A model generated the notes under the pieces. That model was not told the origin of the DNA. It did no database searches and saw nothing but the letters and a program-made list of their open reading frames with translations. The position numbers were made by a program, and so were the translations under genes. Shown in pieces: positions 16,322 through 38,428 of a stretch of 64,000 nt of DNA; position 1 is the first letter of the stretch, and the number at the start of each line of letters is the position of its first letter. This DNA comes from an uncultured Gammaproteobacteria bacterium (GTDB lineage: Bacteria > Patescibacteriota > Microgenomatia > Woykebacterales > RBG-16-39-9b), in contig OZ246414.1 in the NCBI GenBank assembly GCA_965231125.1, positions 81,739 to 145,738 of the forward strand. The letters are read 5' to 3'.

Positions 16322-16367
16322 TGCTTTATTCTAGCGATCGGCGCTGAATCGGTCAACAACTACAGTG

Positions 16368-18193: not shown

Positions 18194-19333
18194 TTGTCAC
18201 TTGTTACTTACTGGCTGATAAGTTTGACAACCCCTACCAAACCAGCTACGATTAAGCTAATGTCCTTGCCCAAAACCAAGATACTGTTTTTACCCGTATC
18301 GCTCCTATTAATAGCTTTTTACCTTACTTTTTTCATTTCCCCCGCATACGCTGGGTGCAATATAACCACCCCAGAGGGCGATTATTTCACTCCAGGTACT
18401 GCTATTAACTTTAAAATAACAGGTGTATTACCAAACCACAGTATAAAACTTGATCTTATTCAAGTCCACGGCGGTAATACTATCGATACAAAAACGCTCA
18501 CATCAGATCAAAACGGGGAAGCGAGTTTCACCTATAACGCTCCACCGGCGTTGGGAGATTATGTATGGATAGCTGACAACGATCCGAGAGATTGTACACC
18601 TGGCATCGGCAGTTCCCCTGGATTTACTGTTTCTAATCAAAGCTCTGGGGGTATTAATTTTGTAACTTTCCCGGCGCAAGTCGATAATGGGCGAACAACC
18701 ATAAGTATTAAAGTCACCGGCCTAGACCCAAATAGCTGTTATATAGTAAAAAAGGTTGACGGTTTTACCGGCAATATAGTAACCCAACATAACAGCCCCA
18801 TCGACAACGTCTGTCAGGATTTTACACAACTAGGTATGACGATAATTAAAAGCGACGATCAAGGTGCCCTCCAAATTGAAAATATCTGCGAAAATATGGA
18901 AGGCGCAAGAACCGATTGCACTAATCCTTTTGACGCCAATAAAACTTACTCTTTCCAAGTATATAAGTTCAAGTCTGGTTGTCATGTTATTGATCTACTA
19001 GATTGTTTTACAAAGGTCGGTGATCCCCTAAGTTTTACTGTCTCCAAAAGTATCAAATTTCCTCCAACAGAAGATCGAGGGAAAGAACTGTCAGGAGATA
19101 CTCGCAAATTTGTAAATACACTTGTTAGTTTCGGCATCGGGATTGCTGGAGGAGTCGCGTTTTTACTACTCATATACGGTGGGTTTAAATTTATCTTTAG
19201 CCTAGGCAATCCTGAAGCAGTGCAGCAGGGAAGGGAAATTATAACCGCTGCTCTAATTGGTCTAATTGTGGTTGTTTTTTCAGTTTTTCTTTTACGATTA
19301 GTCGGGATAAGTATTTTAGGTCTACCCTTATGA
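18194..19333 (+). CDS. T4SS pilin-domain protein with large N-terminal extracellular domain
   Basis: The C-terminal 70 aa carry the two-helix pilin module (GGFKFIFSLGNPEAVQQGREIITAALIGLIVVVFSVFLL). The start may instead be the internal Met at 18260. Confidence 0.55.
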   Translation: MSLVTYWLISLTTPTKPATIKLMSLPKTKILFLPVSLLLIAFYLTFFISPAYAGCNITTPEGDYFTPGTAINFKITGVLPNHSIKLDLIQVHGGNTIDTKTLTSDQNGEASFTYNAPPALGDYVWIADNDPRDCTPGIGSSPGFTVSNQSSGGINFVTFPAQVDNGRTTISIKVTGLDPNSCYIVKKVDGFTGNIVTQHNSPIDNVCQDFTQLGMTIIKSDDQGALQIENICENMEGARTDCTNPFDANKTYSFQVYKFKSGCHVIDLLDCFTKVGDPLSFTVSKSIKFPPTEDRGKELSGDTRKFVNTLVSFGIGIAGGVAFLLLIYGGFKFIFSLGNPEAVQQGREIITAALIGLIVVVFSVFLLRLVGISILGLPL

Positions 19334-20772
19334 GAACACCAACCTCAAGGAGAATTTTATCTTTTCTAGCCTTAGTCCTTGCCCTGCTTATTTTGAATCT
19401 AAATCAAACGTCTGGTCACAGAGTTTATGCGGCTGATCCTTGTCCCGTAGCGTTTCCCGCTTTTGACGGTACTGAGGGAACTACTACTACCGCCGATGGA
19501 GGGATAATAAAATCTTCCAACCCAATTCCAGAGGGTGCAAGTATTAAGGTTTTTTATAAAGCGTCAAGCGCTGTTCAATCCCAATCCCAACCAAATGATT
19601 GGATAGTAAGGGTAGATAGCGATATTGGTACAAGTGAGGCCCTAAGTGATGTGACCGTAGGGCCTCCTAATCCAGAACATTTGTGGTCCGCTTCGCTTGG
19701 TGCTACTATCCCATCTGGTGATCATTCCGTTTCGCTTATTTACCGCCCTACTGGAACTGTATGCGACACCCAAGGTTTCCACGTTTCGCTAACAGCTGAT
19801 TCTTCGAAGGGAATTTTTTCTGGTATTCTAGATCCTCTTCACGGGCGTTTTTCTAGCTTTGGGGAAATTGCCTCAAAACTTGCACCTTTTATACTGGCTC
19901 TTGGTGGAATGGTTGCTTTTCTCTTCCTTATCTGGGGTGGTATTAAATACATGCTGTCTCAAGGAGACCCAAAAGCAGTAACATCCGCCCGCAGCACAAT
20001 TGTTTCCGCCATAATTGGTTTAATAATACTGGCCTCCGTTTTTGTAATTCTCCAGCTCATAAACCTCATATTCAAAATTCCGGTGTTAGGCGCAACTTCG
20101 AACCAAGTGTTTGCCGCTAACTGTTCTTACCAACTATCAACTAATCAGATCGCCTACAACGGATCATTCAATGTAACAACCACTGTCCAAGGTAGTAATT
20201 ATTACACAATATCTTTCAATCCTGGTAACAATAACAAGATATTTATGGCCAACATTGCTGAAACATCCCACACCGAAACTATAAACATAGGTACCTTTTA
20301 CACCAACCCTCCTACTCAGATTACAGTGACAGTAGGACATGGGATTCCCTCCCAACATCCCGCGCCGTGTGATTTGCAAGGGAGTAATGAAGTAACCATA
20401 ACCCCTGCTCCCAACCCAACCGGGGGAAACAATAACGACGGTAACGACAACAGTACAACTGCGAAAGGTGGAATAAACATCGGAGATGCCTTCAAATTCG
20501 GAACTAAAGGTGTCAAAGACGTGTTTCCAAACTTTGGGGTGTTATTAACTAGTGTGGTTAATTTCGCTATAGCCGCAGCCGGTTTAATTTTCTTCTTCAT
20601 GCTAGTTTGGGGCGGCATGCGCTATATGCTTGCTAGAGGTGACGACAAACTAATCGTGGACGCAAGACAAACAGTCACCAATGCGGTGATAGGTCTCTTG
20701 ATAGTTGTTGCTTCTTTCGCGATAATTAAGTTAATAGCTTTAGCAACCGGGGCTCATATTTCTATTTTTTAA
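19330..20772 (+). CDS. tandem-duplicated T4SS pilin-domain protein (two pilin modules)
   Basis: Pilin modules at about aa 185-240 (GGIKYMLSQGDPKAVTSARSTIVSAIIGLIIL) and aa 425-480 (GGMRYMLARGDDKLIVDARQTVTNAVIGLLIVV). 4-nt overlap with the upstream gene. Confidence 0.55.
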   Translation: MRTPTSRRILSFLALVLALLILNLNQTSGHRVYAADPCPVAFPAFDGTEGTTTTADGGIIKSSNPIPEGASIKVFYKASSAVQSQSQPNDWIVRVDSDIGTSEALSDVTVGPPNPEHLWSASLGATIPSGDHSVSLIYRPTGTVCDTQGFHVSLTADSSKGIFSGILDPLHGRFSSFGEIASKLAPFILALGGMVAFLFLIWGGIKYMLSQGDPKAVTSARSTIVSAIIGLIILASVFVILQLINLIFKIPVLGATSNQVFAANCSYQLSTNQIAYNGSFNVTTTVQGSNYYTISFNPGNNNKIFMANIAETSHTETINIGTFYTNPPTQITVTVGHGIPSQHPAPCDLQGSNEVTITPAPNPTGGNNNDGNDNSTTAKGGINIGDAFKFGTKGVKDVFPNFGVLLTSVVNFAIAAAGLIFFFMLVWGGMRYMLARGDDKLIVDARQTVTNAVIGLLIVVASFAIIKLIALATGAHISIF

Positions 20773-20774
20773 TT

Positions 20775-21104
20775 ATGCCAGCTTCTAGTGCATCTTCAAG
20801 TAGTTCAAGTCTGCCGGTAATCGGTCATATAAAGCCGCCTTCTGGTTTCCCCATCGATCCTAACACTATTATCTCCGGCCTAATAAGCTTGATAATAGGG
20901 TTTGCTGGGTTAGTTTTCTTTGCAATGCTCGTTATTGGTGGGTTTCGGTATTTAACTGCCGGTGGGGACGAAAAAGCCGCCCAGGAAGCCCGTAAAACTC
21001 TAACCAACGCCGGGGTTGGGTTGATTATAATTGTGGCCGCGTTTTTAATCGCCCAACTACTCTTTCAAGTGTTTGGGCTGGAATCTTTAGTTAAGATAGG
21101 CTAA
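20775..21104 (+). CDS. TrbC/VirB2-like T4SS pilin
   Basis: 109 aa with a TM1-GGFRYLTAGGDEKAAQEARKTLTNAGVGLIIIVAAF-TM2 topology. Confidence 0.6.
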   Translation: MPASSASSSSSSLPVIGHIKPPSGFPIDPNTIISGLISLIIGFAGLVFFAMLVIGGFRYLTAGGDEKAAQEARKTLTNAGVGLIIIVAAFLIAQLLFQVFGLESLVKIG

Positions 21105-21108
21105 GCTG

Positions 21109-21591
21109 ATGTTTAAAAAATTTCTGCTGGGCAACGGATTAAACAAAATATCAACTTTCCTGATGACCGGGGGCATTTTGTTTCCGATAATTAACAGCTT
21201 GGCTGTAAAAACAATTTACGCAGCGCCAACAACTCCTACATCCGCTACCGCCAGCTCTACCGTCAGCGCAAGTTCGTCGGCAACCTTCCATATTCCAAAC
21301 CTAATCCCTTTTAAAAATCTTGGTGATCTTTTCCAAGTCCTTTTGAGTCTGGCTTTTTTTGCAGCGGGGCTCGCTTTTTTTCTCAATTTAATTGTCGGCG
21401 GCTTTCAGTGGATTTCCTCTGGTGGAGACCCCAAAGCCTTGCAAACCGCCAGAGGCCGAATAATGAACGCTTTTGTAGGATTGATTATAGTGGTTGCCGC
21501 CTACGCAATTGCCTTAATAGTCCAAACTGTGTTGGGAATAAGAATAGTCAGTGGTTTTTGTATTCGTTTGCCGGGCGGAACATGTCCTTGA
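21109..21591 (+). CDS. TrbC/VirB2-like T4SS pilin with Cys-x2-LPGGT-x-Cys tail
   Basis: GGFQWISSGGDPKALQTARGRIMNAFVGLIIVVAAY and a C-terminal FCIRLPGGTCP. Confidence 0.6.
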   Translation: MFKKFLLGNGLNKISTFLMTGGILFPIINSLAVKTIYAAPTTPTSATASSTVSASSSATFHIPNLIPFKNLGDLFQVLLSLAFFAAGLAFFLNLIVGGFQWISSGGDPKALQTARGRIMNAFVGLIIVVAAYAIALIVQTVLGIRIVSGFCIRLPGGTCP

Positions 21592-21664
21592 CAGATTGGC
21601 ACTTGCCAAAGTATTTTTTATCTGTATATAATTATGTTAGAGGAAAGGTGGGGGTAGACAGTCT

Positions 21665-22063
21665 ATGAAAAAACTCGTCTCTGCCACAATAGTAAGTGTT
21701 GCTACATTCTTTAGTTTTGCGGGAGCTGCATTCGCGGTGGATTCCCCAAATATACGGGGTTTTGATTCAAACAGCATTCCTTTCCCAAACTTAGGTAAGT
21801 TGATAAGTAATATTCTCTCGTTATTATTTTTCTTCGCCGCCCTACTTGCATTTCTTTTTATTATCTTAGGTGGTATCCAATGGATTACTGCCGGTGGTGA
21901 CAAAGTCGCTGCTCAATCGGCCCGAGATAGAATTACAGCGGCGGTCATTGGTTTGGTAATAGTAGTCGCCGCTTTCGCCATAACCGTTATTCTCTCGAAG
22001 GTCTTGGGAATTAATCTCTTCGAATACAACTTCCCCGGCACATCCACTACCGCCGGCGCCTAA
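21665..22063 (+). CDS. TrbC/VirB2-like T4SS pilin
   Basis: Signal peptide plus GGIQWITAGGDKVAAQSARDRITAAVIGLVIVVAAF. Confidence 0.6.
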   Translation: MKKLVSATIVSVATFFSFAGAAFAVDSPNIRGFDSNSIPFPNLGKLISNILSLLFFFAALLAFLFIILGGIQWITAGGDKVAAQSARDRITAAVIGLVIVVAAFAITVILSKVLGINLFEYNFPGTSTTAGA

Positions 22064-22076
22064 AACTCTAAAAACG

Positions 22077-23255
22077 CTAATTTGAGAATCCGGTAGTTCC
22101 AGTAAGAATAGTAAAGTAGATTTTTGAGACAGGTAGACCAGTAAGTAATGGGTAGTAAAAAGCAAACAGCCCAAAGCACGAAATTATAAACCCCGCAAGT
22201 AAAAACTTTTTCCCCTCAAAATTCTCTTCTATCATTTTACTAAGTAAAATTACCCCAAACGGCAGCGCTGGGAGCAGATAATACTGTAGAGTGTTGTGGT
22301 AAGCGAAAAACCAAGGGAGCCAAAAGCAGGCAAAGGCTCCCAGCAAAAAGAGCTTTTCAGACGTAAAGTCTCTTTTTTTTATCACCAAAATAATTGCCCC
22401 CAGAATTCCCCAAAAAATGGCGGGGTTAAAGAGAAAAATAACGCTGCGGACTGTGTTTCCGACAGTTTGACCCAAATAAGGAAGCGGTGGATCCAAAAAC
22501 CAAAGCCAGGGAGGATAACCCAAGTTGTCTTTGGATTTTAGAAAAAGATGGTAATTAGCCATTTGCCACTGCAGGTGAAAAAGGCTGTCAAGAGTGTGGT
22601 TTTTTAAATAAAAACTATACGAGGCGAAGTAGACTAACAAAACAACTGTTATTAACTGAGCAATTTTCAACAGGGAACGGGGTTTCTTCTTAAGAAGATA
22701 AAATCCCAAAGCAAAAATTAGTAAAAATAGACCGCTCCATTTTGACGATATTGCCAGCCCAAAGAAAAACCCGCTTAATAATAAATCTTTGGAACTTTCG
22801 CTTTTAAGAAATTTCCAAAAGAAATAGCCAGCTGCCAGGCTAAAAGCAGCCACGTAAATTTCGATAGTACCGAGCCGTGAACTTACAAACCAACCAAACT
22901 CGGCTGTTAAAAAGAGGCTTGCCAAAACTGGAATAAACTTTCCGCCAAACATTTTTTCCGCCAGCAGGTAAATAAATACGACCCCCAAACTCCCGACTAA
23001 AACTTCTGGTATTCGCCAACCCCAAACGTTGTCACCAAAAACATGGATACTTGCCGCCATAAAAAGTTTTGCGACTGGCGGGTGTTGGAAATTAGCTAAA
23101 AAATCCCCGTGCAGGTAGGCACGGGCCGCCGGTATGTAAAAAGCGCCCTCGTCAAAATAAGCGCTTTGGGGAGAATTTAGTAGAAAAAGTTTCGTCAGAA
23201 AGTTAAAGAGAAAAATCAGCGTAAGGAATACAAAGTCAAAACGAGCAAATCTCAT
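22077..23255 (-). CDS. GT-C fold glycosyltransferase (GT39/ArnT/PMT-like), polytopic membrane protein
   Basis: 392 aa with at least 10 TM helices and the N-terminal loop pattern typical of dolichyl/undecaprenyl-phosphate-sugar dependent glycosyltransferases. Interrupts the pilin array on the opposite strand. Confidence 0.5.
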   Translation of the reverse strand: MRFARFDFVFLTLIFLFNFLTKLFLLNSPQSAYFDEGAFYIPAARAYLHGDFLANFQHPPVAKLFMAASIHVFGDNVWGWRIPEVLVGSLGVVFIYLLAEKMFGGKFIPVLASLFLTAEFGWFVSSRLGTIEIYVAAFSLAAGYFFWKFLKSESSKDLLLSGFFFGLAISSKWSGLFLLIFALGFYLLKKKPRSLLKIAQLITVVLLVYFASYSFYLKNHTLDSLFHLQWQMANYHLFLKSKDNLGYPPWLWFLDPPLPYLGQTVGNTVRSVIFLFNPAIFWGILGAIILVIKKRDFTSEKLFLLGAFACFWLPWFFAYHNTLQYYLLPALPFGVILLSKMIEENFEGKKFLLAGFIISCFGLFAFYYPLLTGLPVSKIYFTILTGTTGFSN

Positions 23256-23341
23256 TAACCAAATTCTAGCATAATTTAGAGGTTTCTAGACTCAGGTGTC
23301 TTTAATTGACAGACTTCTCATTATTACTTAAAATCTAGTTA

Positions 23342-23746
23342 ATGCCGCCACCAAAGAAATTCGGGCCGTTATTATCTGCGATGCTATTTCTTTCAACCGC
23401 AGCCCCAATCTACGCTCAAGCCAAACTAGTTGACACTTCGCCCGGCTACGCTCCTCTAACAGAGCTGGAAACAATCTTCGGCAACGTTTTAAATGTCGTG
23501 ACGCTTTTAGCTGGATTTGCAGTTCTGCTTATGCTCATTATTGGGGCTTTTCGCTACATGGCGGCTCAAGGCGATCCAAAAGCAATAGGTTCCGCAAGAA
23601 GTCATATTACTTGGGCCTTTATTGGTCTTTTCTTCATTGTCGCGGCTTGGCTTGTATTACTCTTCGTCGCTCAATTTACCGGGGTTAATCTAACGCACTT
23701 TTGCGTTCAGCTTCCTGGTGGGACTACTTGTAAGCTTCAACGTTAG
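23342..23746 (+). CDS. TrbC/VirB2-like T4SS pilin with Cys-x2-LPGGT-x-Cys tail
   Basis: Signal peptide, GAFRYMAAQGDPKAIGSARSHITWAFIGLFFIVAAW and a C-terminal FCVQLPGGTTCK. Confidence 0.6.
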   Translation: MPPPKKFGPLLSAMLFLSTAAPIYAQAKLVDTSPGYAPLTELETIFGNVLNVVTLLAGFAVLLMLIIGAFRYMAAQGDPKAIGSARSHITWAFIGLFFIVAAWLVLLFVAQFTGVNLTHFCVQLPGGTTCKLQR

Positions 23747-24390
23747 TGAAGAAGCGATCCTTGTGGTACGTAGTTTATATTCAACGCGCCAATATCTTTT
23801 ATCCCCTCATCAGTAAACCAAGAAATCGCTTTCTGTTTGTAAAATTCAATCGGAGCTTTGTTAATAAAAACAAAAAACTGATCAGGAGCATCAAAACTTA
23901 TACCAAACCCATTCTTATTAATCGGCAGTTTTTTTCTTATCTTGTTGATTATTTCTGCTAAATTTTCTTGAGAAGTAGTTCCCTTTCCGGTTTTAAAATT
24001 CCAAGCAAAAAGTGGTTGGTTTGCTACCAAAACTTGTAAACTATATTTTGTATTTGGTTTAAGATTTACGCTCGGGCTAAAAGTAGCTGTCTGCCCATCC
24101 TTACTAAGATTCGTGCTAAATTTTACGCTGGGTGTACTTTTTAAATACACTGTGTAGTTTGCTACCGAGTCTGAAAAAGTAACCACCATTTGAGGCGTCG
24201 TGCTGACACCTTTTTGCCCTTGCAAAGGGTTTACACTAACTACTCTTGCGGATATTACTGGCGCGGTTTGGTTGTTATTGTTGTTTTGACTAGTTCGACT
24301 CTTAGGCGTAAACAAAATACCAACAACAATTAAACTAATTGCAAGAGCGGCTCCGCCTCCAAGTAAAATTTTATCTTTTGTAGTGATCAT
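23743..24390 (-). CDS. membrane-anchored hypothetical protein
   Basis: N-terminal TM, then an Asn/Gln-rich linker and a beta-rich domain. Confidence 0.4.
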   Translation of the reverse strand: MITTKDKILLGGGAALAISLIVVGILFTPKSRTSQNNNNNQTAPVISARVVSVNPLQGQKGVSTTPQMVVTFSDSVANYTVYLKSTPSVKFSTNLSKDGQTATFSPSVNLKPNTKYSLQVLVANQPLFAWNFKTGKGTTSQENLAEIINKIRKKLPINKNGFGISFDAPDQFFVFINKAPIEFYKQKAISWFTDEGIKDIGALNINYVPQGSLLH

Positions 24391-24392
24391 AA

Positions 24393-24956
24393 TTAAAAAA
24401 TGTCTGGTTTTTTATCTTGCAAGCGATCAATCTGCGCCAACCTAGACTCAATATTTATTAAAGTATCGGGTGCAAAATACCATTGTTCGCTCACGCTCTG
24501 ACTTATCTCATCAACAACCTGACCCCTACCTTTGTTCGACAAAAGTAAAATTTTAAATCCCACATAATCAGGACTATAAACTAGGTCCGCGCCATCATCA
24601 AGCACTTTAATCCCAGCCGCTAAAGACGGTTTTACTTTTACTAAAATAACTATACTGTCTTTTACGTAAACCTTCGCTTCGTCACTACCAATTTTATATT
24701 TAAATAGTAGCATCCTGGTTTTTGCAAGAGTATAAGTTTGGTTTGGCTTTCCCAGGATCTTATTTAAACTCTCAACCGAAGTTTTTCCCGGCACAACGCC
24801 TCGCCAACCGTAACCAACTCCCCTAAAAAATATTAGATAAGTCAAAATTAGTAGGGCCAGGAGACCCAAAATTATTGGTGCTAAGACTTTTAGATTTTCG
24901 GACAGTTTAGTGAGGGTAAACATAACCAGCAAAAATATTATCTCTAACCCAAGCAT
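24393..24956 (-). CDS. hypothetical membrane protein
   Basis: Two N-terminal TM helices. Sits between the lytic transglycosylase and the gene at 23743. Confidence 0.35.
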   Translation of the reverse strand: MLGLEIIFLLVMFTLTKLSENLKVLAPIILGLLALLILTYLIFFRGVGYGWRGVVPGKTSVESLNKILGKPNQTYTLAKTRMLLFKYKIGSDEAKVYVKDSIVILVKVKPSLAAGIKVLDDGADLVYSPDYVGFKILLLSNKGRGQVVDEISQSVSEQWYFAPDTLINIESRLAQIDRLQDKKPDIF

Positions 24957-26364
24957 ACTGGTGCGGGTACTCGCCCTGCAGATTTACTTGAATGCCAGAA
25001 CCAGAGGTATACGTACCATCCGCAACGTACCAAGCGTCGGATTCCGCTACTGATTCATTGTAACAGGTGATTGGTATATCCCCATCTACAGTGCAATCCG
25101 CTCCTCCTAAAGCCGCAGACGGGTAACTTTTTATTAAACCGCCATCATCTTCGTAAACATGCGCATTTTCAAAGCTCTGAAGAAGGCCACTATTGCGACC
25201 CATAATCACATGGGTAGATTCGTGAGCCAAAACAAAGATCCGTGTAGACTGGGATGTCGCTGCCGATTGTGCCAAGTATATTCCTGGATCAAAGCCGGAT
25301 GGGTTCACTTCGCTGTATCTTGCTGTCCATTTATGCAAAACTACGGCCCCGCCTTGACTACAAAGCAATTGAACAAATTTTGCCGATTGGGTAATGAAGC
25401 CGATTGCCTGCAGCTCCGAAGCCTGATCATCTGACGTCCAACTTCTGTCAAACTGGTAACACGCCTGCCCCCCCGGACCAGGCGAAACTCCCAAATCTTG
25501 TTTCCTTTGGTAAAACTGCCAAACGCTGTCACAATAATGGACATCAGGGTACCTTGGGTCCACACACGCCCCTAAATACGATCCCGCAACTGAATCCACT
25601 AAACTTTTATCCCAAGCGGAACTACTTCCTGAATAATTGTATTTTGTAAAATGTCCCGAGGTGCATTCTTCGACGGCGGCTGCGTCGCTTGAAGAAATAC
25701 TGTCACATTTAATTTTCCAGGCGGCCGCGTAAATAGAGTCCTCAATATTACAAATGTTCGGGGTCCGGCTTTGTCCAGTAGCAATATTCACAGCGTTTTT
25801 ATACCTATCCCATGTACTTGGTAAAAACTGCATCGGTCCTTGGGCGTTATCAACTGATACAGCACACCCTGGCATCACCGCCCCAGGCGCGCTATACTGC
25901 GTTATTTGAGACTCACTTAATATCATTGCTCCTCCCAAATTTTCACTAAGACCAATGCCGTTTAAAACTCCAGCCGGCACCTTCGCCCAACTCGCTGCTT
26001 GAAGAATAATCCCTTCCAATACTATAGAACAATCGTTGCGAGTGCCATCCCCATTTAAATCGTCAGGGCTCAAGTTTGTCTGACAGTAATTTTGGTTAAC
26101 TCCTAATCCGCCTCCCGGCGATGCATGGGCGGCCCCACCACCTGAACCAAGAATCCCAACTCCAACTAAAATTACTACTATTAGAATTACGGTAAATATA
26201 ACAACACCCATCACCGCCAAAAATCCAGGTAGCCATGGGGCCACCGCACCAATAGCGGCTGATATACCCGACCAAGCCGCTTGTCCGAAACGAGCGGCTT
26301 GATAAGCATCGCTAAGTGTACTAAGGGGGCTTTTTTTGTTTTGTTGGTCTTCTTGTTGGGCCAT
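24907..26364 (-). CDS. secreted bifunctional cell-wall hydrolase: SLT-domain lytic transglycosylase plus HExxH domain (VirB1-like role inferred)
   Basis: N-terminal TM. SLT motifs LSENLGG ... AQGPMQFLPSTWDRY ... NIEDSIYAAAWKIK. C-terminal Cys-rich region with HESTH (HExxH). Confidence 0.55.
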   Translation of the reverse strand: MAQQEDQQNKKSPLSTLSDAYQAARFGQAAWSGISAAIGAVAPWLPGFLAVMGVVIFTVILIVVILVGVGILGSGGGAAHASPGGGLGVNQNYCQTNLSPDDLNGDGTRNDCSIVLEGIILQAASWAKVPAGVLNGIGLSENLGGAMILSESQITQYSAPGAVMPGCAVSVDNAQGPMQFLPSTWDRYKNAVNIATGQSRTPNICNIEDSIYAAAWKIKCDSISSSDAAAVEECTSGHFTKYNYSGSSSAWDKSLVDSVAGSYLGACVDPRYPDVHYCDSVWQFYQRKQDLGVSPGPGGQACYQFDRSWTSDDQASELQAIGFITQSAKFVQLLCSQGGAVVLHKWTARYSEVNPSGFDPGIYLAQSAATSQSTRIFVLAHESTHVIMGRNSGLLQSFENAHVYEDDGGLIKSYPSAALGGADCTVDGDIPITCYNESVAESDAWYVADGTYTSGSGIQVNLQGEYPHQYAWVRDNIFAGYVYPH

Positions 26365-26610
26365 GGCAGGTGTATTTAAATTCTATCCTTTGATAGCTTT
26401 AAAAACAATCCTTATCAAGAAGGTGTCCTTAGCTAGCCATTAAGATGGCTAGCACAGGATTCGGGAGTACCCGAATCACTTGGATTTGGTTACGGAGAAT
26501 CCTTAGTCCAAAGGACGCGGGACACTTTAAGTGTCCCATAGCCAATGTATGCTATAATATGGTGCAAAACTAGCTCTCAAACAAAACCATACTTCAGAAG
26601 GAGGAGAGAC

Positions 26611-27501: not shown

Positions 27502-27575
27502 CCCAAAGCGGTTCGAAATCACATCGAACCGCTTTTTCATTGACAAATAAACTCGGCATCTATAAAATTGAATTA

Positions 27576-29603: not shown

Positions 29604-29609
29604 CGCAAC

Positions 29610-32600
29610 CTAAGCGGCTACAATCACAAATCCGCTATTGGGTTCTGGCACTGCGCTCGTAACTAGGTTGTTGTGGCCCATATAGACCATCTTGATGTAC
29701 CTGATGTAACGCTGCTTCTCCTCCTCTCCTATGTTCCTAATCGCTTCCCGTAGAACGTTATTGATTTGGTCCCAGCGATATTTGTCGACGATCATTTCCG
29801 CAAGCTTCATAGAGTATCGGGAGTCAATTTTTGCCCAGCGGGCAATAGTGACAGTCAGGCGATCAACGTCCATCTCCCTCATCGCCTTGCCTCTCTGGAC
29901 TCCATCTTGCTCTTTGAACCTAGAGAGCCACCAACTATTACCCTTTAGGCTCTTGGCGCTTTCCTTAACGAACTCGAGTTCGTCTGTCTCACTCCAGTGA
30001 CCAAGCTCCCGCGCCCTGGCTTTACCGAGACTGTTGTCGAACACTCGGTTCCACCAAACCCATTCCCCATCTCGAACAAATTTGGACTCTGACTCAGCAT
30101 CGTCCCCGATTCGGAAGGGGTAACCCTCGCTGATCCAGGAACCGTAGGTGCCTCCGGAGAAAGCGTGGGCCCGACCCAAAAGGGTGAGCTCCATCTCCCT
30201 CTCTTCCTGGTAAGCGATCGCTGGTCTGCGCAGATCCCAAATCATTCGCTCCATACCGATCCGGCGACCACCAGGAAGCCCGAGATCGAATCTGCCCTTC
30301 GGAATTACGATGGTGGGTAGGCCTTCGGTGTTCCGCCGGACTACGGGGACCACCTGCTGCACCCGGTTAGTCATCGCTTCTTGCAAAGCGTACTGAACCC
30401 TAGCCCGCTTTGGCTCCTCGGGCTGGTGAGCCCACATTGCGTACATGAAGTTACGCGCTGCAGTGGCGTTGTCGTAGTTCACCCGAATGAAGCTATCATA
30501 GCCGTACGTATTTGGGTTGGACAAGCGCACGTTAAGCACCGCCAACGCATTCATCTGACCTAGAATCGCCTCGTTCTGCAGCCAAACGGTGATAGGGTCT
30601 CGGACGGCAAACTCGATGGTACGGGTCCAATCGTCCTCGTCTCGGTAGTTGCGTACCCTGCTGGTGAACTCCTTAACTAGCGTGTCAAAGTCGGGCATCG
30701 CCCCATCACCAGCCGCCGAGTTTAGCCCTCGCTCGCGCTTGAGCTGATCCAAGGCGACTGCCATTGCCTCGGCGTACAAAGTTGCCTGAGCACCGTCGTG
30801 AGGCATCTTCTGCCAGGGTTCCTTGAAGAACCAGGCCCAGTCAAGTAGCGAGCGACGAAGCTCAACCCTTTCCTGGGACACCTCCACGAAACGCTCAAAT
30901 ATCTCGTTTCCGAGAACGTACGCTTCCCTTTCGTCCCGAGTCGGTTCTTTGATCTCCGAGAAGACAGCCTGCCATTCCTCATGAACAAGCTTGTCCGGTA
31001 TCTCTTCTGGACTAGGGATCGGCGCAAAAGCCTCCCCCCGATGCAGTTTGCCCAGAAGGTGGGCCTGGAACCGAGCGCACCGATGCAGAATCATGTACCG
31101 CCGGTCGCAGGTATAATCGATGCTCTCCCACTCACCACCGAAGTTGTTCTGGACATACCGAGCTACGTCCGCATCTTCCATATTCCAACCCTCACGTTTG
31201 GTCCGCATAGAGCGGGCCATCTGCCAGAATTGAATACGGTGCAGACGCTTTCTGCGTCGCTCGATATTTTCCGCCCTGTAGCGGAAGGTGGAGTGATCCA
31301 CCACTGGTTCCCAGCTACCGTAGGAAGGCTGGTAAACTAGCTTCCCTGTCTCCTTATCAACCTTGGATTTACCAGGACGGTATACCCAAGTCACGGTGGA
31401 TGGTTGCTCCACGTACACCGCGAGCTGCACGAGCTCCTTGAGAGCCTGTGCCTGGCTGACTGGATCCGAGGTTTGCGCCCCAAAAATATCCGCCAGAAGC
31501 CAAGGCTCGTTCATCTGCTCGCTTGGATACGAACGGTCCATGTTTTGGTCCACGAAGCTATCCTGATCGCGGAGCCAACGTGCCCACCATTTCTTTAGGG
31601 CTTTGCGACCCTTTGTCTTTTCGAGCTCTATCATCTCTTCTTCGGTGGGTATGCGGAATCCGCTAACTACCTCACCAGTTTTAGGATCGCGTTTCTGCTT
31701 CCGACGGACCGTTTCTTCGAAGTATTTCCACGTCGCCCCGTAACCGAAGTACTCGGTTCCATCCTCATCCGTATAGTAGAGGATTTTCTCCGAACACACT
31801 TTGTGAGCGAGCATGGTGCGGCCTTTTATGTTCAGGTCGCCCACGTCGATTTCGTACTTCTCAGTGTGCGGATTGTAGTGCAGGCCTTCGGGAAATTCCT
31901 GAAAGACCCCTTCACGAACGTTTGCACCATTGCGGTAATACTCCGCTTCCACGCGGCTGCGGAGTGCCTCTTTTTCAGCTTCAGACAGCTCTTCGAGCTC
32001 CCCGGTTTCGGGGTTCTCCACGAAGTAATACCACTGATCTGGTTCCTTCGGGCGAAGCTTCAGCCGAAGCGCGCGGCGGTAGACGTTGTCTTTCTCCCGC
32101 CATTCATCCATTGGTGCGTTGGGTTTGTGCGGTGGAGGGACTTTATTCAACCCTTCGTTGTTCACTGGAAGGTCTCCAGCTCCAACAGCAGGGTAGAACA
32201 CTCGATAGCGAGTAAAGTCCTCTCTCTTCGCGATATCCTCCGCGTGCAACTTGCGCATAACTTCCAGCCGGGAAGAGCCAGGGTTCTTTTTGAGAGCCCG
32301 ACGCATCCGGTGGTAGCTACGCGACACACGCCGAATTTCCCGGTGGTACATCCAGTTAGGATAGCGTCCACCGGGACCAATGTCTTGACGAACTCTAGCG
32401 TGGTTCAGCTCGGGCGAAAGAACGAACATGTTCGTGTCGATACGAACCTGCCCAAGAGAAACCTCAGAGTTCTCTATTTCTTGTTGAAGTTTCTGTACTT
32501 CTTCCCACATGTGCTTTTGTTTTACGGTGTCCGAGATTCCAAACGAGAGAGTGCTGATGAGAAACGGGTTTTTTCCCTTACGCTCAATAGCGTAGCATAG

Positions 32601-32945
32601 AATCGGTTCCCGCTCTCCCATTGGGAATTCGGGCTTTCCGTCTCTGCCAACCCGCCATACCCCGTCCCTTGGTACAACGACTCGCTCCTTAGGCTTGGCT
32701 GTAACCACTTCCATGAAGAAGCGGCGGCCACCCCTCTGCCCGTTGATCTGGAAACCTTGTTCCGAATACTGCGTCTCAGCCAGAGCTTTGAGCTCCTGCT
32801 CTAGCGATGGGAGACCAGCGTATGCCCCCGATCCATATTCGGCTGGGGTTATTACCAGATCCGGTATTCTACCGAACCTAGTTCCGGGAAGAGCTTCCTC
32901 GAACTCTTCGCCATAACCGTCACCGTCCCCATTACCATTTGTCAT
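29610..32945 (-). CDS. giant orphan protein (about 1113 aa), soluble, Arg/Glu/Trp-rich, in a compositionally distinct (about 55-60% GC) segment
   Basis: Continuous ORF. The start is assigned to MTNGNGDGDG, preceded by an AGGAGG SD; the ORF track's upstream extension lacks an SD. No TM, no Walker A and no recognisable catalytic motif. Confidence 0.6.
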   Translation of the reverse strand: MTNGNGDGDGYGEEFEEALPGTRFGRIPDLVITPAEYGSGAYAGLPSLEQELKALAETQYSEQGFQINGQRGGRRFFMEVVTAKPKERVVVPRDGVWRVGRDGKPEFPMGEREPILCYAIERKGKNPFLISTLSFGISDTVKQKHMWEEVQKLQQEIENSEVSLGQVRIDTNMFVLSPELNHARVRQDIGPGGRYPNWMYHREIRRVSRSYHRMRRALKKNPGSSRLEVMRKLHAEDIAKREDFTRYRVFYPAVGAGDLPVNNEGLNKVPPPHKPNAPMDEWREKDNVYRRALRLKLRPKEPDQWYYFVENPETGELEELSEAEKEALRSRVEAEYYRNGANVREGVFQEFPEGLHYNPHTEKYEIDVGDLNIKGRTMLAHKVCSEKILYYTDEDGTEYFGYGATWKYFEETVRRKQKRDPKTGEVVSGFRIPTEEEMIELEKTKGRKALKKWWARWLRDQDSFVDQNMDRSYPSEQMNEPWLLADIFGAQTSDPVSQAQALKELVQLAVYVEQPSTVTWVYRPGKSKVDKETGKLVYQPSYGSWEPVVDHSTFRYRAENIERRRKRLHRIQFWQMARSMRTKREGWNMEDADVARYVQNNFGGEWESIDYTCDRRYMILHRCARFQAHLLGKLHRGEAFAPIPSPEEIPDKLVHEEWQAVFSEIKEPTRDEREAYVLGNEIFERFVEVSQERVELRRSLLDWAWFFKEPWQKMPHDGAQATLYAEAMAVALDQLKRERGLNSAAGDGAMPDFDTLVKEFTSRVRNYRDEDDWTRTIEFAVRDPITVWLQNEAILGQMNALAVLNVRLSNPNTYGYDSFIRVNYDNATAARNFMYAMWAHQPEEPKRARVQYALQEAMTNRVQQVVPVVRRNTEGLPTIVIPKGRFDLGLPGGRRIGMERMIWDLRRPAIAYQEEREMELTLLGRAHAFSGGTYGSWISEGYPFRIGDDAESESKFVRDGEWVWWNRVFDNSLGKARARELGHWSETDELEFVKESAKSLKGNSWWLSRFKEQDGVQRGKAMREMDVDRLTVTIARWAKIDSRYSMKLAEMIVDKYRWDQINNVLREAIRNIGEEEKQRYIRYIKMVYMGHNNLVTSAVPEPNSGFVIVAA

Positions 32946-33817
32946 TTGTGTTTCCTCCTCGCTGTTGAACCACCTCGACTTAGTCGAGGGTGCTGACCGG
33001 CAAACTTTCTTTGTGAGAACTGTTTCCCACTTTGGTGTTTGCTGGATCAGCAGCAACACCAAGGGGCGGCCGAAGGCCAGTTTTAAATTATAAGACGCGG
33101 GACATATGTCCAAAACACTAGAATCTTACATCCTAAATCTGACATCCATCCGTCCCTCGGTGTTACCTATACTAAGGAGGGGTCCTGGTTTTCACCGGGA
33201 CTTCGACTTGTCTAACGACAAGTCTTGTTTTTTGCTTGTTACCTCAATTTTTCGGCGTACTACAGGTTTAATCCTGTAGTTCTTTTGATCTTTATTCGTT
33301 TTTTAAGGTGCACATTAGCTTTTCGAAAATAGATCGCTCCGTAACCAAATCCAAGTGATTTGGGTACTCTCGCGTTCTGTGCTTTAAAAAAGCTAAGGGC
33401 TCTGGGTGACAAATTTCTTATCAACCAGAGCCCACCTTCGGGGTCCTATGAAGGGACACCTCAACTCGGAGGTGGCTCTGGATTATTTAGTTTAATTTTA
33501 AGTTCGCCCTTACTCATTTTTTCTAGCCTCTACTGACTGGCCGAATTTTAGCATAACTTAGCTTAAATGTCAACTATAAGTCATTTTGTAACTTCGAAAC
33601 CTGCGAGCTCTTGGTTTCTCAGGTACTCTCACGTCTCGCGCTAGGCGTCTTAACGCCTAGCTAAGAGCGCATCGGTTTTTATTCGCGCAGTACGATACAG
33701 TTTGACTCGGTTGCTTTTAGCCTCCCCATGAGCCATAATAATCCCTACAATAGTCGTAAAAAGCTATTTTTCGGCGAAGGATCAGCGAAGCGAGCCGAAG
33801 TATTGTAACCAAAAGTT

Positions 33818-34342
33818 ATGCAACAGCATCCTGTCCCACAGAACATAACAAGTTTTGAATTTAAGCTAGTTGGGTTTCTGACGATTAAGCAATTCGGCTA
33901 TCTTGCCGCTGCCGGAATTTTTTCCTTTGTCTTTTTCATTTCTCCAATACCGACCCTTTTAAAAACTATCGTTATTACTCCTTTTGCCGCAGCCGGACTT
34001 GCCTTTGCTTTTGCTAACATAAACGGTCTCTCGTTTGACAAGTGGATCGTTGCCTTTATTCACTCGGTCTATTCCCCGTCAAGAAGGGTTTGGCACAAAG
34101 TGCCGAAGGAGATAAGTTTTCTCGCGCCAAATTTTTCCTACTATCTCAAGCGGCCGCCTACCCAACAAAAAATTGCCAGTGGCGATCGGACTCGTTTAGA
34201 AAAATATCTTGCGCAGTTGCGAAACCAGCGTTTTAATTCTAATCTCGATGTTTTTGAGGAAATGCGCCTTTCAAAAATTGACTTTAGGGCGACTGTTCCT
34301 CACTTTACAACCGTAGACTCCCAAAGGGATGAAGGCGACTGA
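33818..34342 (+). CDS. PrgI/VirB3-like small membrane protein (inferred)
   Basis: 174 aa with two adjacent TM helices near the N-terminus. Sits two genes upstream of VirB4 and overlaps the next gene. Confidence 0.4.
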   Translation: MQQHPVPQNITSFEFKLVGFLTIKQFGYLAAAGIFSFVFFISPIPTLLKTIVITPFAAAGLAFAFANINGLSFDKWIVAFIHSVYSPSRRVWHKVPKEISFLAPNFSYYLKRPPTQQKIASGDRTRLEKYLAQLRNQRFNSNLDVFEEMRLSKIDFRATVPHFTTVDSQRDEGD

Positions 34343-35825
34343 GATGGCAGAACCCAACCAAGAAAAGACAGCGGCATATTTTCCTGAGATACCGACAGAT
34401 TTGCCGGAGAACGTCCCGTCTTATCCTGGCAAAAATCTACCCCGCGCCTATAAACCGGCGGCACCCTCCCGCGACGTTACTCACGGGCTGTTGGAGGGGA
34501 CGCGGAGTTTTGCCTCGGAAGTAAATTTTGATCCAGTTACAACTTTAAACCTGCCGGATAAAAACGTCTACGTGCGGCCGGTTAAAAACCTAAAATCCCG
34601 GGATATCACTCCATTACCTCTCAACGGCCCATTAAGTTTGCCTTCCAAAGGGGAGAAGATTTTTGATCTCTCGGCCGACTTTCAACGTCAGATTGAAGCG
34701 CGACTTTCTTATATTATGAATCAGTATGAAACCAAATCTAACCCTAACTTACCTGATTTAGCTCCACCACCTAACCTTAGTCCGGAGACTCCCAGTCCGG
34801 CGGAAACTGCTCCTGCCGCTGCCCAACCTGGGCAAGCTGTCCAGCGCCCGGTTATCAGCCCAGAAATTAGCGCGGCGGCCCAAGTCCCTCAAAGAGCACT
34901 GGAGACGCCACCTGCTCAACCCCAGAGTCCGGTTCCATATCAATCAGCCAATCGGTTACCTTCTGACCAAGAAGCTCTGCTTGATATTCTAACTAGACTA
35001 GAGAGGCAAATCCGAGAGTTGGAGATTCAAAAAAACGCCGCCCAAGCAAGGGTTGTTGAGCTAACCAACAAATATCAATCGCAAATTTTGGCGCTGGCAA
35101 AAAACCAAGAAGGTTTTAGCTCTGTTATTGAGCAGCTGAAAAATCAACTTGTCGAGGAGCAAAAAAAGAAACTGGCCGGGGACGCCATGGTCAACACTAT
35201 TAAAACAGAATCCCAAGTCGAAATTCAAAGACTAAAGATTGAAAGAGACTCTCTTCTTTCCCAGCTAAAAGAGGCCCAGACCAAAATTTCTGATCTACAA
35301 CAGACCGCGTCTAAATTCCCAGTTTCAGAAATACAAGTATCCGAACTTAAGGCCCGCCTGGCCCAGGTGGAGAGGGAAAGATCTGATTCCGAGGAAAAGA
35401 TAATGAAGTTGCAAAGTTTGGTGGACGATTTAAGGACGGGTTCCCGTGTGGCTGAGGAAGAAAGACACGTTATCACTGCTCAGGCGGTACCAGTAGAGTC
35501 TCTGACCACGGCAAAAATCGTGTCCCCGGCCCCAGCGTTTGGAAAAATGGCGCCTCCACTTACCACCATTCCTAACGTTGTTAACGGTATCATCAAAGAT
35601 CGCGCTGGCCTGCTCTTAACTGATGTCATAATTGTCGTAAAAGATGAGGCGAGTAACCCTGTAAGGGCCTTAAAATCGAATAAAATTGGTCAATTTGCTA
35701 TCTCAACACCACTACCAACCGGCACTTACACTATGGAACTTGAAAAAGAGGGTCAAGAATTTGATCTTGTCCAAATAAAATTGGAAGGAAAAGTAATGCC
35801 ACCCGTGGAAATAAAATCTCGGTAA
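34329..35825 (+). CDS. Pro-rich coiled-coil protein with C-terminal beta domain, T4SS-associated (inferred)
   Basis: PxxP-rich N-terminal half, a long coiled coil (ERQIRELEIQKNAAQARVVELTNKYQ...) and a C-terminal beta-sandwich-like domain. Overlaps the prgI-like gene by 14 nt. Confidence 0.4.
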   Translation: MKATEMAEPNQEKTAAYFPEIPTDLPENVPSYPGKNLPRAYKPAAPSRDVTHGLLEGTRSFASEVNFDPVTTLNLPDKNVYVRPVKNLKSRDITPLPLNGPLSLPSKGEKIFDLSADFQRQIEARLSYIMNQYETKSNPNLPDLAPPPNLSPETPSPAETAPAAAQPGQAVQRPVISPEISAAAQVPQRALETPPAQPQSPVPYQSANRLPSDQEALLDILTRLERQIRELEIQKNAAQARVVELTNKYQSQILALAKNQEGFSSVIEQLKNQLVEEQKKKLAGDAMVNTIKTESQVEIQRLKIERDSLLSQLKEAQTKISDLQQTASKFPVSEIQVSELKARLAQVERERSDSEEKIMKLQSLVDDLRTGSRVAEEERHVITAQAVPVESLTTAKIVSPAPAFGKMAPPLTTIPNVVNGIIKDRAGLLLTDVIIVVKDEASNPVRALKSNKIGQFAISTPLPTGTYTMELEKEGQEFDLVQIKLEGKVMPPVEIKSR

Positions 35826-35847
35826 GGGCAGCTGGTTTCAAAACCTT

Positions 35848-36564
35848 ATGGCCAACAAAAAAATTTACACAACTCAAGAACATTTAGATATCGATGACGT
35901 TAGAGACAATTTGGCCGTTCTAAAAAACGGGGAGGCGGTCGCGATTATTCAGACAAACGCGATCAACTTTGACCTTTTAAGTGAAAGGGAGCAGGACGCA
36001 ATGATCTTTGCCTACGCTGGCTTGCTAAACTCCCTCACGTTTCCGATACAAGTTTTGGTGAGATCAAAACGTTTAGATCTTTCCAATTATTTACAGTATC
36101 TTGCTCTTTACCGGCGGCAAGCCAAAAACCCACTTTTGGTTGCCCAAATGGATAAGTACGCCTCTTTTATTAAGGATTTAGTTGCAAGGAATGAGGTTTT
36201 GGATAAGAGATTTTATATAGTTGTGCCTTATCTAGCTATTAGCCTTACTCAATTAAAAAGTCTAGGCGGCGGCCTTTTAGGTAAAAAACCGCGAGGCACA
36301 AATCGCTGGAGCACCATTGAGAAAGCTAAAGTTAATCTTGAGCCAAAAATCGAACACATCGTTAAACAGCTTGCTCGGATTGGAATTAAAGCCAAACAGC
36401 TTACCACTGAAGAATTAGTCGAGCTTTTTTACGACTACTACAACCCCGAGGTAGCCAGGGAACAGAAAGCAGCTCTTTCCACCTCGGAGTACACAACTCC
36501 AATTGTGGAACCGGCGGTAAGCCCAATTTTAGAGCAGTCACAAGGAGACACGAATGCAACTTAA
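35848..36564 (+). CDS. putative N-terminal domain of a split VirB4/TraC-family protein
   Basis: 238 aa. Overlaps the VirB4 ATPase ORF by 11 nt. The combined length of 862 aa matches a full-length VirB4. Confidence 0.35.
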   Translation: MANKKIYTTQEHLDIDDVRDNLAVLKNGEAVAIIQTNAINFDLLSEREQDAMIFAYAGLLNSLTFPIQVLVRSKRLDLSNYLQYLALYRRQAKNPLLVAQMDKYASFIKDLVARNEVLDKRFYIVVPYLAISLTQLKSLGGGLLGKKPRGTNRWSTIEKAKVNLEPKIEHIVKQLARIGIKAKQLTTEELVELFYDYYNPEVAREQKAALSTSEYTTPIVEPAVSPILEQSQGDTNAT

Positions 36565-38428
36565 TCCTTTTAAAAAAAGGGAAAAGGTTGACCCGGTAGA
36601 AGCAGAACTGGCTCAAACCCGAGCAAAAGTGGCCAATGTTCTCGGTAGGGGAATGACAGATGTAAAGGACGTGATTGCTCCACCGGCCATTGAAATCGAC
36701 TTTGATTACTTAAGAATTGGTGAGTTGTACTTCCGCACATTATTTATCACTGGCTACCCTCGCTTTGTCGGTGCTAATTGGCTGGCTCAAATTATAAATT
36801 TTGACCATACCCTTGATATTTCCTTCTACTACTACCCCGTTGAATCGAAGGGAATACTTGACGATCTGCGGCGAAAAATCGCCGAGATGGAGGCTACGAT
36901 TGAAAGCGACCTAGAGGCAGGTAGAGTCTTAGATCCTGGGGTCCGAATTGCTTTAGAGGATGCTCAAGCCCTCCAGGAACAGCTAACCGCTGGTATCGAA
37001 CGCTTCTTCCAGTTTTCTTTCTACATAACCATACCCGCTTACTCCTTAGAAGAACTCAACTCTGTTACCAAACAAGTAGAAGCGGCCCTTGGGTCTCTTT
37101 TGGTCGTCTCCAAGCACGCGACGCTACAACAAGAACAGGCTTTTCAATCTGTCTTACCTACCTTCACCGATAAACTTTTGGTGACTCGGAACATGGACAC
37201 GACTTCTTTGGCTACAACTTTTCCTTTTGTTTCTAGCGAGCTAACTGCTAATGAAGGGGTTATGTACGGCATTAACGAACACAATGGATCTTTGGTCATT
37301 TTTGACCGCTTTAGCCTGGAAAATGCAAACTGCGTCGTCTTTGCAAAATCCGGAGCCGGAAAAAGCTACTTAGTTAAACTGGAGACTTTGCGTCAATTAA
37401 TGTTTGGCACTGAAGTTTTAGTTATCGATCCAGAAAACGAGTATCAAGCCTTAGCCGAGGCGATTGGAGGAGAATATATGGAATTTAAGGCCGAGTCCGG
37501 AATAAAAATAAACCCCTTCGATCTTTCCGGTATCTACCAGCAAGGAGAAAACGAACTAGGTTTAAAAATTTTGGCTCTTCACTCCCTTTTCCGAATTATG
37601 ATGGGTCAGCTAACGCCAATGGAAGATGCTGTTTTAGACAGAGCCTTGGTTGCTACCTATAAATTAAAGGGTATAACTCCAGACCCGGCCACCCAAACAA
37701 GACAGCCGCCGATTATGGAGGACCTTTACAATATCTTACTTAACATGGCGGAGCCGGAAGCTAAGGGAATGGCAACTCGTCTGGAAAAATTCATTCGGGG
37801 TTCTTTATCCGGTGTATTTAATGAGCAAAGCAATATTAACCTTAGAAATACCTTTACTGTTTTTTCTATCCGTGATATGGAGGACGAACTGCGCCCAATT
37901 GCAATGTTCATCGTCTTAGACTTTATCTGGACGAGGATCAAAAGAAATCTTAAAAAGCGGGTTCTTGTGGTAGACGAGGCTTGGTATTTAATGAAGTACC
38001 CTGACTCAGCTGCTTTCATGTACTCCATCGCAAAAAGAGCCCGTAAATACTTTTTAGGGGTGACAACAATAACTCAAGACGTCGAAGACTTTCTTTCTGG
38101 AGATTACGGTAAGGCAATTGTTACTAACTCATCTATGCAATTTCTATTAAAGCAGTCACCGGCGGCGATAGATGCAGTTACTGATATTTTTTATTTGTCC
38201 GAGGGGGAGAGAAATTTACTGCTTTCTGCCGAGATCGGCGAGGGCCTTTTCTTTGCTGGCCCTAACCACGTGGCTATTAGGGTTCAGGCTGCACCACACG
38301 AACACGGGTTAATTACTTCAAACCCAGCTGAGCTTGTTGAGAGTAACCAGCCCTCAAATATTTCCGCGCCAAACAGCCCCCCGACAGAAGAAACTACTTA
38401 TCCGGGGTCTACCCCAAACCAACTCTAA
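36554..38428 (+). CDS. virB4: VirB4/TraC/CagE-family type IV secretion ATPase
   Basis: Walker A (VVFAKSGAGKSYLV) and Walker B (RVLVVDEAWYLM), with the overall TraC-like layout. Confidence 0.8.
   Translation: MQLNPFKKREKVDPVEAELAQTRAKVANVLGRGMTDVKDVIAPPAIEIDFDYLRIGELYFRTLFITGYPRFVGANWLAQIINFDHTLDISFYYYPVESKGILDDLRRKIAEMEATIESDLEAGRVLDPGVRIALEDAQALQEQLTAGIERFFQFSFYITIPAYSLEELNSVTKQVEAALGSLLVVSKHATLQQEQAFQSVLPTFTDKLLVTRNMDTTSLATTFPFVSSELTANEGVMYGINEHNGSLVIFDRFSLENANCVVFAKSGAGKSYLVKLETLRQLMFGTEVLVIDPENEYQALAEAIGGEYMEFKAESGIKINPFDLSGIYQQGENELGLKILALHSLFRIMMGQLTPMEDAVLDRALVATYKLKGITPDPATQTRQPPIMEDLYNILLNMAEPEAKGMATRLEKFIRGSLSGVFNEQSNINLRNTFTVFSIRDMEDELRPIAMFIVLDFIWTRIKRNLKKRVLVVDEAWYLMKYPDSAAFMYSIAKRARKYFLGVTTITQDVEDFLSGDYGKAIVTNSSMQFLLKQSPAAIDAVTDIFYLSEGERNLLLSAEIGEGLFFAGPNHVAIRVQAAPHEHGLITSNPAELVESNQPSNISAPNSPPTEETTYPGSTPNQL

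Follow-up and report, generated by a model that had tools for sequence, protein, structure and literature searches.

The 64-kb window analysed here, one stretch of contig OZ246414.1, contains between positions 18194 and 38428 a group of genes resembling a type IV secretion system (T4SS). Essentially all non-trivial window open reading frames (ORFs) of at least 100 amino acids (aa) were searched against Pfam, and those left unassigned against NCBIfam. An earlier note on this DNA had listed six pilin genes, a cell-wall hydrolase, a VirB6/TrbL-like protein, a PrgI/VirB3-like protein, a proline-rich coiled-coil protein and a VirB4 ATPase that seemed to be divided; this observation is confirmed, with weak support for the hydrolase, but the list omitted a PMT_2 glycosyltransferase, a Big_5 protein, proteins of 187 and 318 aa and a 1,111-aa ORF on the opposite strand.

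The motor lies at the right-hand end of the locus. The 624-aa ORF at 36554–38428 (plus strand) scores 390.5 bits against the NCBIfam profile of CD1110-family VirB4 (cut-off 325), has a Pfam TraG P-loop/AAA_10 match, aligns with the C-terminal domain of Thermoanaerobacter VirB4 in the PDB (4ag5, E=1.3e-53) and carries the Walker A motif AKSGAGKS at residue 264, confirming its earlier designation as a VirB4 ATPase. The profile match runs from position 179 to 734 of 752, so that the protein lacks the first ~180 profile positions. A free-standing N-terminal VirB4 part is predicted in the ORF immediately upstream (35848–36564, plus strand), whose 238-aa TrsD-like product matches the NCBIfam TrsD/TraD family NF041427 (E=2.4e-9, profile positions 14–141 of 201), positions 99–233 of the 894-position VirB4_plasma (mycoplasma VirB4) profile and positions 125–171 of the 752-position CD1110 VirB4 profile. 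Its 37.3 bits against NF041427, for which the curated cut-off is 200, point to homology in domain to TrsD/TraD without membership of that staphylococcal/enterococcal-plasmid subfamily. The precomputed public Pfam label of the protein is PF26593 ‘TraC-like’, and a fused relative of 787 aa (P0184) aligns through residues 9–215 to the 238-aa ORF and through residues 213–768 to the 624-aa ORF. Because of the TrsD and VirB4 profile matches, the collinear fused relative and the PF26593 label, we assign the beginning of the VirB4 N-terminal domain to the 238-aa ORF and the remainder of that domain plus the ATPase to the 624-aa ORF, in agreement with the earlier suggestion; the upstream ORF was examined for being unrelated to VirB4, and it is related. 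Searches of the 238-aa protein against solved structures, singly and as a 20-sequence profile, returned chance matches only, so the link to VirB4 rests on the NCBIfam profiles and the fused relative.

The two ORFs do overlap by 11 nucleotides (nt) in different frames, as had been noted. This overlap, together with the existence of the fused 787-aa relative, would be expected if the split had arisen from a frameshift error in sequencing or assembly, or from a recent mutation turning virB4 into a pseudogene, leaving either a defective system or a true gene that is a single ORF. Against such an explanation, a Shine-Dalgarno sequence (AAGGAG) stands 6 nt 5' of ATG 36554, at the correct spacing for a start codon, and the same two-gene structure is found in the NCBI genome, a JGI record and two independent Logan assemblies. 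We surveyed the junction in 75 loci from different species-level genomes in which both genes are visible, and none has a fused trsD-virB4; in 69 of the 75 the junction measures −20 to +25 nt, being either a short gap or an overlap of 1, 4, 8, 11 or 14 nt, and the second gene is seen in each of the three frames relative to the first. The TrsD-like family is also strongly conserved, with 54 invariant columns in its alignment, and an arrangement of TrsD plus VirB4 is already in the literature (PMC12102498). An error or a recent mutation is thus extremely improbable. Because of the Shine-Dalgarno sequence, the independent assemblies, the lack of fusion in the 75 loci and the varying junction and frame, we read this as a genuine gene boundary, with trsD and virB4 as adjacent, translationally coupled genes in an ordinary and widely conserved arrangement. 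The apparent split reported earlier therefore stands as two genuine ORFs but is neither a true nor a programmed frameshift.

The 238-aa protein has more than 1,000 homologues, which among the matches listed (n=120) measure 231–325 aa, and the TrsD-like family comprises 3,337 representative clusters at 50% identity. The fusion was seen in one of 267 retrieved proteins, P0184, and the fused and split forms are therefore interconvertible. Among the T4SS components that lie near virB4 in Patescibacteria, TrsD has been described as the most abundant (PMC12102498), and the present analysis adds that the boundary between the two genes is fixed across the 75 species-level loci. Many TrsD-like proteins of other lineages (P0142, P0158, P0205, P0208 and P0227) have C-terminal low-complexity tails of 200–470 aa in which Q, N, P, S and T abound; the tail of the window protein is just 16 residues long.

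Upstream of the motor genes lie the candidates for its membrane partners. The product of 33818–34342 (plus strand) is a PrgI/VirB3-like membrane protein, as claimed, with a PF12666 match above the Pfam cut-off (E=5.8e-12), and of 81 related loci 57 have prgI. The ORF that separates prgI from trsD (34329–35825, plus strand) encodes the proline-rich protein of 498 aa, in which the expected coiled-coil-type matches (SMC/Rad50 segments) were the only ones obtained apart from a weak C-terminal CarboxypepD_reg match below cut-off (E=1.9e-4) in a beta-sandwich-like domain. This protein occupies the same position in 34 related loci and is a conserved partner.

The VirB6/TrbL-like assignment of the 564-aa polytopic membrane protein at 27576–29270 (plus strand), which is conserved alongside further T4SS genes in 29 related loci, was upheld at the level of the fold but has no support at the level of sequence. 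The protein has an N-terminal anchor followed by around six membrane segments, and no Pfam or NCBIfam profile matched it; nor did comparison of the family with PDB sequences and Pfam, as a profile and member by member, give anything meaningful. Weak TrbC matches of four family members were read as an effect of transmembrane composition and set aside. An AlphaFold model built with 44 homologues has a predicted local distance difference test (pLDDT) score of 70.3 overall and 85–95 in the membrane core, and a Foldseek search of the PDB with this model places TrwI/VirB6 chains of R388 in all five top positions (probability 0.99–1.0), with target TM-scores of 0.42–0.48 over almost the full length of VirB6. 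On the strength of the model we accept the protein as VirB6-like in fold. VirB6 has been described as scarce in Microgenomatia, ‘suggesting extreme sequence divergence’ (PMC12102498), and the fold-level evidence suggests that Microgenomates-group loci do have the ‘missing’ VirB6, in a form too diverged for sequence profiles.

The left part of the locus is occupied by an array of pilins. As predicted, six ORFs match the T4SS_pilin family PF18895, and together they contain seven VirB2-type pilin domains, all above the Pfam gathering score and each with two hydrophobic helices as in VirB2/TrbC pilins; pairwise identity among the domains is 29–57% (mean 39%). Four of the ORFs, all on the plus strand, encode pilins of 109 aa (20775–21104, E=2.5e-12), 160 aa (21109–21591, E=4.1e-6, 27.2 bits against a cut-off of 26.6), 132 aa (21665–22063, E=4e-7) and 134 aa (23342–23746, E=9.2e-12). 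The first two proteins of the array are unusually large, with big extracellular regions before their pilin domains. The 379-aa protein (18194–19333, plus strand, E=3.7e-8, above cut-off) has a signal peptide, an extracellular domain of ~270 aa and a C-terminal VirB2-type pilin domain, with hydrophobic segments at residues 22–40, 306–339 and 345–379; its true start is probably ATG 18260 instead of TTG 18194. The 480-aa protein (19330–20772, plus strand, E=6.4e-15 over two stretches) carries two pilin domains with an extracellular region ahead of each. These two proteins could be tip or adhesin-bearing pilins. Inside the array, on the minus strand, lies the gene of a PMT_2-family membrane glycosyltransferase (22077–23255, PF13231 E=3.8e-23), which suggests a role in pilin or envelope glycosylation; the enzyme was unseen in related loci as fetched, whose flanks are too short to tell.

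Between the pilins and the VirB6-like gene lies a candidate VirB1-like hydrolase, membrane-anchored and encoded at 24907–26364 (minus strand), with an SLT-like N-terminal module and an HExxH C-terminal module. The earlier claim of an SLT/HExxH hydrolase is backed by the kinship of its N-module, and the SLT and HExxH identities themselves correspond to sub-threshold matches (SLT E=0.045, Peptidase_M78 E=0.13), and PDB sequences and PHROGs returned nothing. The N-module is 54% identical to that of its positional counterpart in a Woykebacteria relative (L003 856–2199, minus strand), which ends in a clear Peptidase_M23 domain where the window protein has its HExxH domain. Since the N-module is shared with a protein of this kind, the product of 24907–26364 is likely to be a wall hydrolase of modular build whose C-terminal modules can be exchanged. 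Other relatives have hydrolases of 650–1,240 aa with M23 or CHAP at the end.

Three further proteins are encoded around the hydrolase. The membrane-anchored Big_5 (bacterial Ig-like) protein at 23743–24390 (minus strand, PF13205 E=4.9e-10) has one N-terminal hydrophobic segment, and the membrane-anchored 187-aa protein at 24393–24956 (minus strand), with N-terminal hydrophobic segments, matched no family in the Pfam and NCBIfam scans. The 318-aa protein at 26545–27501 (plus strand), secreted or lipoprotein-like with a single N-terminal hydrophobic segment, had neither a family match nor a homologue in 80 related loci.

The window corresponds to a chromosomal origin region, with core genes on both flanks of the T4SS locus. 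Directly to its right are recF (38425–39528), dnaN (39528–40673) and dnaA (40766–42448), all on the minus strand, with rnpA, yidC and a KH/R3H (jag-like) gene beyond dnaA; rpoD, dnaG, a tRNA cluster, tmRNA and smpB form the left flank. This neighbourhood recurs in related loci, dnaN being present in 60 and dnaA in 43 of 81. No integrase family was matched in the Pfam and NCBIfam scans of the window, and composition is uniform across the locus, the sole atypical gene being the 1,111-aa opposite-strand ORF. With its core-gene flanks, its dnaN/dnaA synteny and only one atypical ORF, the locus does not bear the marks of a mobile island.

The same scans of the 64-kb window found no VirD4/TcpA, VirB11 or relaxase family, and a search for Walker A motifs recovered only VirB4, RecF, DnaA and a tRNA synthetase; VirB5, VirB7, VirB9 and VirB10 were likewise not found in the window. 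A virD4 or relaxase gene nearby was specifically looked for, and its absence bears out, within the window, both the earlier statement that VirD4, relaxase and VirB11 are lacking and the argument built on it for an apparatus that is not conjugative. As no coupling protein or relaxase is nearby, the system most likely functions without DNA conjugation.

Patescibacteria VirB4 proteins form a monophyletic clade related to MPF-FATA, a mating-pair-formation (MPF) class (Quiñonero-Coronel 2025, PMC12102498). The T4SSs of this phylum include PrgI/VirB3, VirB6 and VirB2 pilin arrays of 2–11 genes, lie near dnaA/dnaN and have their type IV coupling protein (T4CP) genes mostly distant from virB4 (PMC12102498), features restated in a 2025 review (PMC12857230). 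The present locus has the FATA-type VirB4, the adjacent TrsD, PrgI, a VirB6 at fold level, the PF18895 array and the proximity to dnaA. We therefore consider it probable that it is a chromosomal, origin-proximal Patescibacteria T4SS descended from MPF-FATA, with a gained VirB2-like array and a two-gene motor, and likely dedicated to non-conjugative host contact or macromolecule transfer.

Several points weigh against this reading. The VirB6 Foldseek E-values are marginal (0.013–0.07), though the top five are all VirB6; the wall-hydrolase assignment is weakly supported, its matches being sub-threshold; no VirB8-like component was recognised in the locus; and the proposed function is drawn by analogy, the sequence being silent on the transported cargo. 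In addition, the scans covered 64 kb of a ~915-kb contig, to which window the statement on coupling protein and relaxase is limited, and in many Patescibacteria VirD4-like genes lie far from virB4 (PMC12102498). These last two points would also be compatible with the locus being the mating-pair-formation module of a functional conjugative system, with coupling protein and relaxase acting in trans from elsewhere on the chromosome; the machinery does descend from conjugation systems, and VirD4-like genes are known from 2,918 Patescibacteria genomes, mostly at such a distance (PMC12102498). Relaxases, however, occur in only 103 Patescibacteria genomes, and the distant T4CP homologue of Candidatus Southlakia epibionticum is non-essential where its other T4SS genes are essential (PMC12102498). 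The core-gene flanks at the origin, the synteny across many lineages, the lack of an integrase match and the uniform composition save for the large opposite-strand ORF also speak against conjugation in trans, which we regard as very unlikely.

The T4SS of S. epibionticum (SEML1_0006–0019) is among the closest known systems: the system and its pilin array are essential, and it has no recognisable coupling protein or relaxase (Wang 2023, PMC10633639). Like this and other Patescibacteria-clade systems, the present locus is chromosomal and close to dnaA, without relaxase or coupling protein, and combines VirB4 and an adjacent TrsD with PrgI/VirB3, VirB6, a divergent VirB2-like array and nearby wall hydrolases. 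Unlike that of Southlakia, a member of the Saccharimonadia, it is Woykebacteria-like, from the Microgenomates group, its VirB6 is undetectable by sequence, and it adds the PMT_2 glycosyltransferase in the pilin array, the SLT-like/HExxH hydrolase and the 1,111-aa orphan. The earlier remark that minimal T4SSs are known from episymbiotic Patescibacteria thus agrees with published work (PMC10633639, PMC12102498). Publications on Patescibacteria (Wang 2023; Quiñonero-Coronel 2025) have already made this class known and cover, for the phylum, every feature in the earlier note; the locus is an additional instance and introduces no new principle. The biological importance of the system is clear from the only species tested so far, which cannot grow epibiotically without it (PMC10633639).

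Among systems outside the phylum, the Trs system of staphylococcal plasmids pGO1/pSK41 (TrsC, TrsD, TrsE and TrsG; MPF-FATA) shares the division of VirB4 function between a small TrsD and a shorter VirB4-type ATPase (TrsE), as well as a VirB3-like protein and a wall hydrolase, but differs in residing on plasmids, in being conjugative, with a coupling protein and a relaxase, and in lacking VirB2 pilins. The VirB and Trw systems of Agrobacterium and R388 (MPF-T) have homologues or structural analogues here of VirB2, VirB3, VirB4 and VirB6, whereas the present locus belongs to a monoderm envelope, has a split VirB4 and lacks any VirB5/7/9/10/11 or VirD4 that we could find. Bordetella Ptl, Brucella VirB and Helicobacter ComB resemble it in being non-conjugative and having neither VirD4 nor relaxase (PMC12857230), but they are diderm systems with outer-membrane core complexes, and their gene order and phylogeny are unrelated.

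Modelled on established VirB-type systems and the R388 structure, TrsD and VirB4 would dock on PrgI/VirB3 and the VirB6-like protein to form a membrane platform, the hydrolase would open the wall locally, and the ATPase would draw pilins out of the membrane to build a pilus or conduit touching the host cell, allowing host contact and the passage of proteins or other macromolecules. Of this model, we observe directly the set of components and the ATPase encoded by two genes. Tubular structures, possibly T4SS pili, have been seen between a cultivated parasite and its host (2026 preprint, 10.64898/2026.06.21.733656). The function of Patescibacteria T4SSs has been called completely unknown (PMC11665869).

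Instead of exporting effectors, the apparatus could import host macromolecules such as DNA or RNA, in the manner of Helicobacter ComB or archaeal Ced. Patescibacteria lack nucleotide synthesis, an import role of their T4SS has been put forward (PMC11665869; 10.64898/2026.06.21.733656, on feeding on host RNA), no coupling protein is present, and the 624-aa ORF does match the DNA-import ATPase CedB, albeit weakly (E=1.6e-14, 53.5 bits against a cut-off of 700). That match, however, reflects only the shared ancestry of VirB4/HerA-type ATPases, no ComB- or Ced-specific components (ComB7–10; CedA/CedA1/CedA2) were detected, and the direction of transport is unreadable from sequence. Host contact with effector export and import of host macromolecules are accordingly both live options, which sequence alone cannot separate, although uptake in place of export seems to us the less probable by some distance.

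In the core of the locus, the VirB6-like gene and prgI flank the large opposite-strand ORF (29610–32945, minus strand). It encodes an orphan, apparently cytoplasmic protein of 1,111 aa if translation begins at ATG 32945, or of 1,167 aa from TTG 33113. Its G+C content at third codon positions (GC3) is 0.62, against ~0.42 in neighbouring genes. No membrane segment is predicted, searches of Pfam, NCBIfam, PHROG and PDB sequences came back empty, and among 5.8 billion proteins there is one homologue only, at 46% identity; the AlphaFold model, from this two-sequence alignment, is unusable (mean pLDDT 31.5). Six Woykebacteria-like relatives have ORFs of 922–1,066 aa in the same slot and orientation (L004 4177–6945, L008 2561–5392, L010 2763–5693, L013 2061–4940, L017 2735–5629 and L020 5119–8319, all on the minus strand), again with raised GC3 (0.49–0.72 vs 0.35–0.47 locally). 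The one slot ORF checked for composition, that of L003, is rich in Trp, Arg and Glu like the window orphan. Even between close relatives the slot ORFs diverge extremely, and they make up at least two families by sequence, of which A and B are linked by a weak hhalign match (probability 72%, E=3e-5). The idea that all large ORFs in the relatives' loci form one family was rejected: they include M23/CHAP hydrolases and an epimerase fusion, and only A and B are weakly similar. Judged by these comparisons, the orphan is a fast-evolving, GC3-rich gene; as a candidate lineage-specific gene in the locus core, it could guide substrate searches.

The orphan and prgI are divergent, and the 872-bp intergenic region between them (32946–33817) is matched in the relatives by regions that are also long (795–2,262 bp). 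Within it, a block at ~33390–33500 is conserved with L004 7345–7455 and has fold z-scores of −4.3 to −7.0 against shuffled sequences, on either strand. In this structured element a repeated GCUCUGG/CCAGAGC motif (GGGCUCUGG / CCAGAGCCCACC / GGUGGCUCUGG) could apparently pair in alternative ways that exclude one another. The element is carried by two distinct sequences only, and Rfam gave no credible family in the intergenic region (32900–33850). Scanning metagenomes for its 19-nt hairpin core returned eight unrelated GC-rich contigs without T4SS context, which we dismissed as chance matches. The GC3-rich orphan gene and the structured element are the only unexplained items of the locus. The orphan might be a lineage-specific T4SS partner, either a translocated effector or a factor that processes or recruits substrates in place of coupling protein and relaxase, with the element as its regulatory leader or a small RNA, but we consider this improbable. 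A sigma-70-like promoter lies on the minus strand at 33573–33545, just beside the structured element. The promoter/terminator scan gave counts near the shuffled expectation and was used solely to support two start-codon choices, and an Rfam scan of the window recovered tRNAs and tmRNA only.

As for the source organism, the closest named relatives of the 238-aa TrsD-like protein are Candidatus Woykebacteria (78% identity), which belong to the Microgenomates group of Patescibacteria (NCBI taxonomy), and source-named close homologues of the TrsD and VirB6-like proteins are nearly all labelled Patescibacteria, with a few exceptions that look mis-assigned. Several public genomes bearing the locus (among them L007, L008, L010, L017, L018 and L020, and the cluster representative P0270) carry the labels ‘Candidatus Nanoarchaeia archaeon’, ‘uncultured Gammaproteobacteria’ or ‘Pseudomonadales’, and here the records probably have the taxonomy wrong. 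Four envelope-related genes adjoin the locus on the minus strand (13607–18122), directly upstream of the pilins and divergent from them; their products are a 584-aa protein with a SpoIID domain, a protein with a bacterial PH domain, a DUF5657 protein and a protein of 636 aa with membrane segments.

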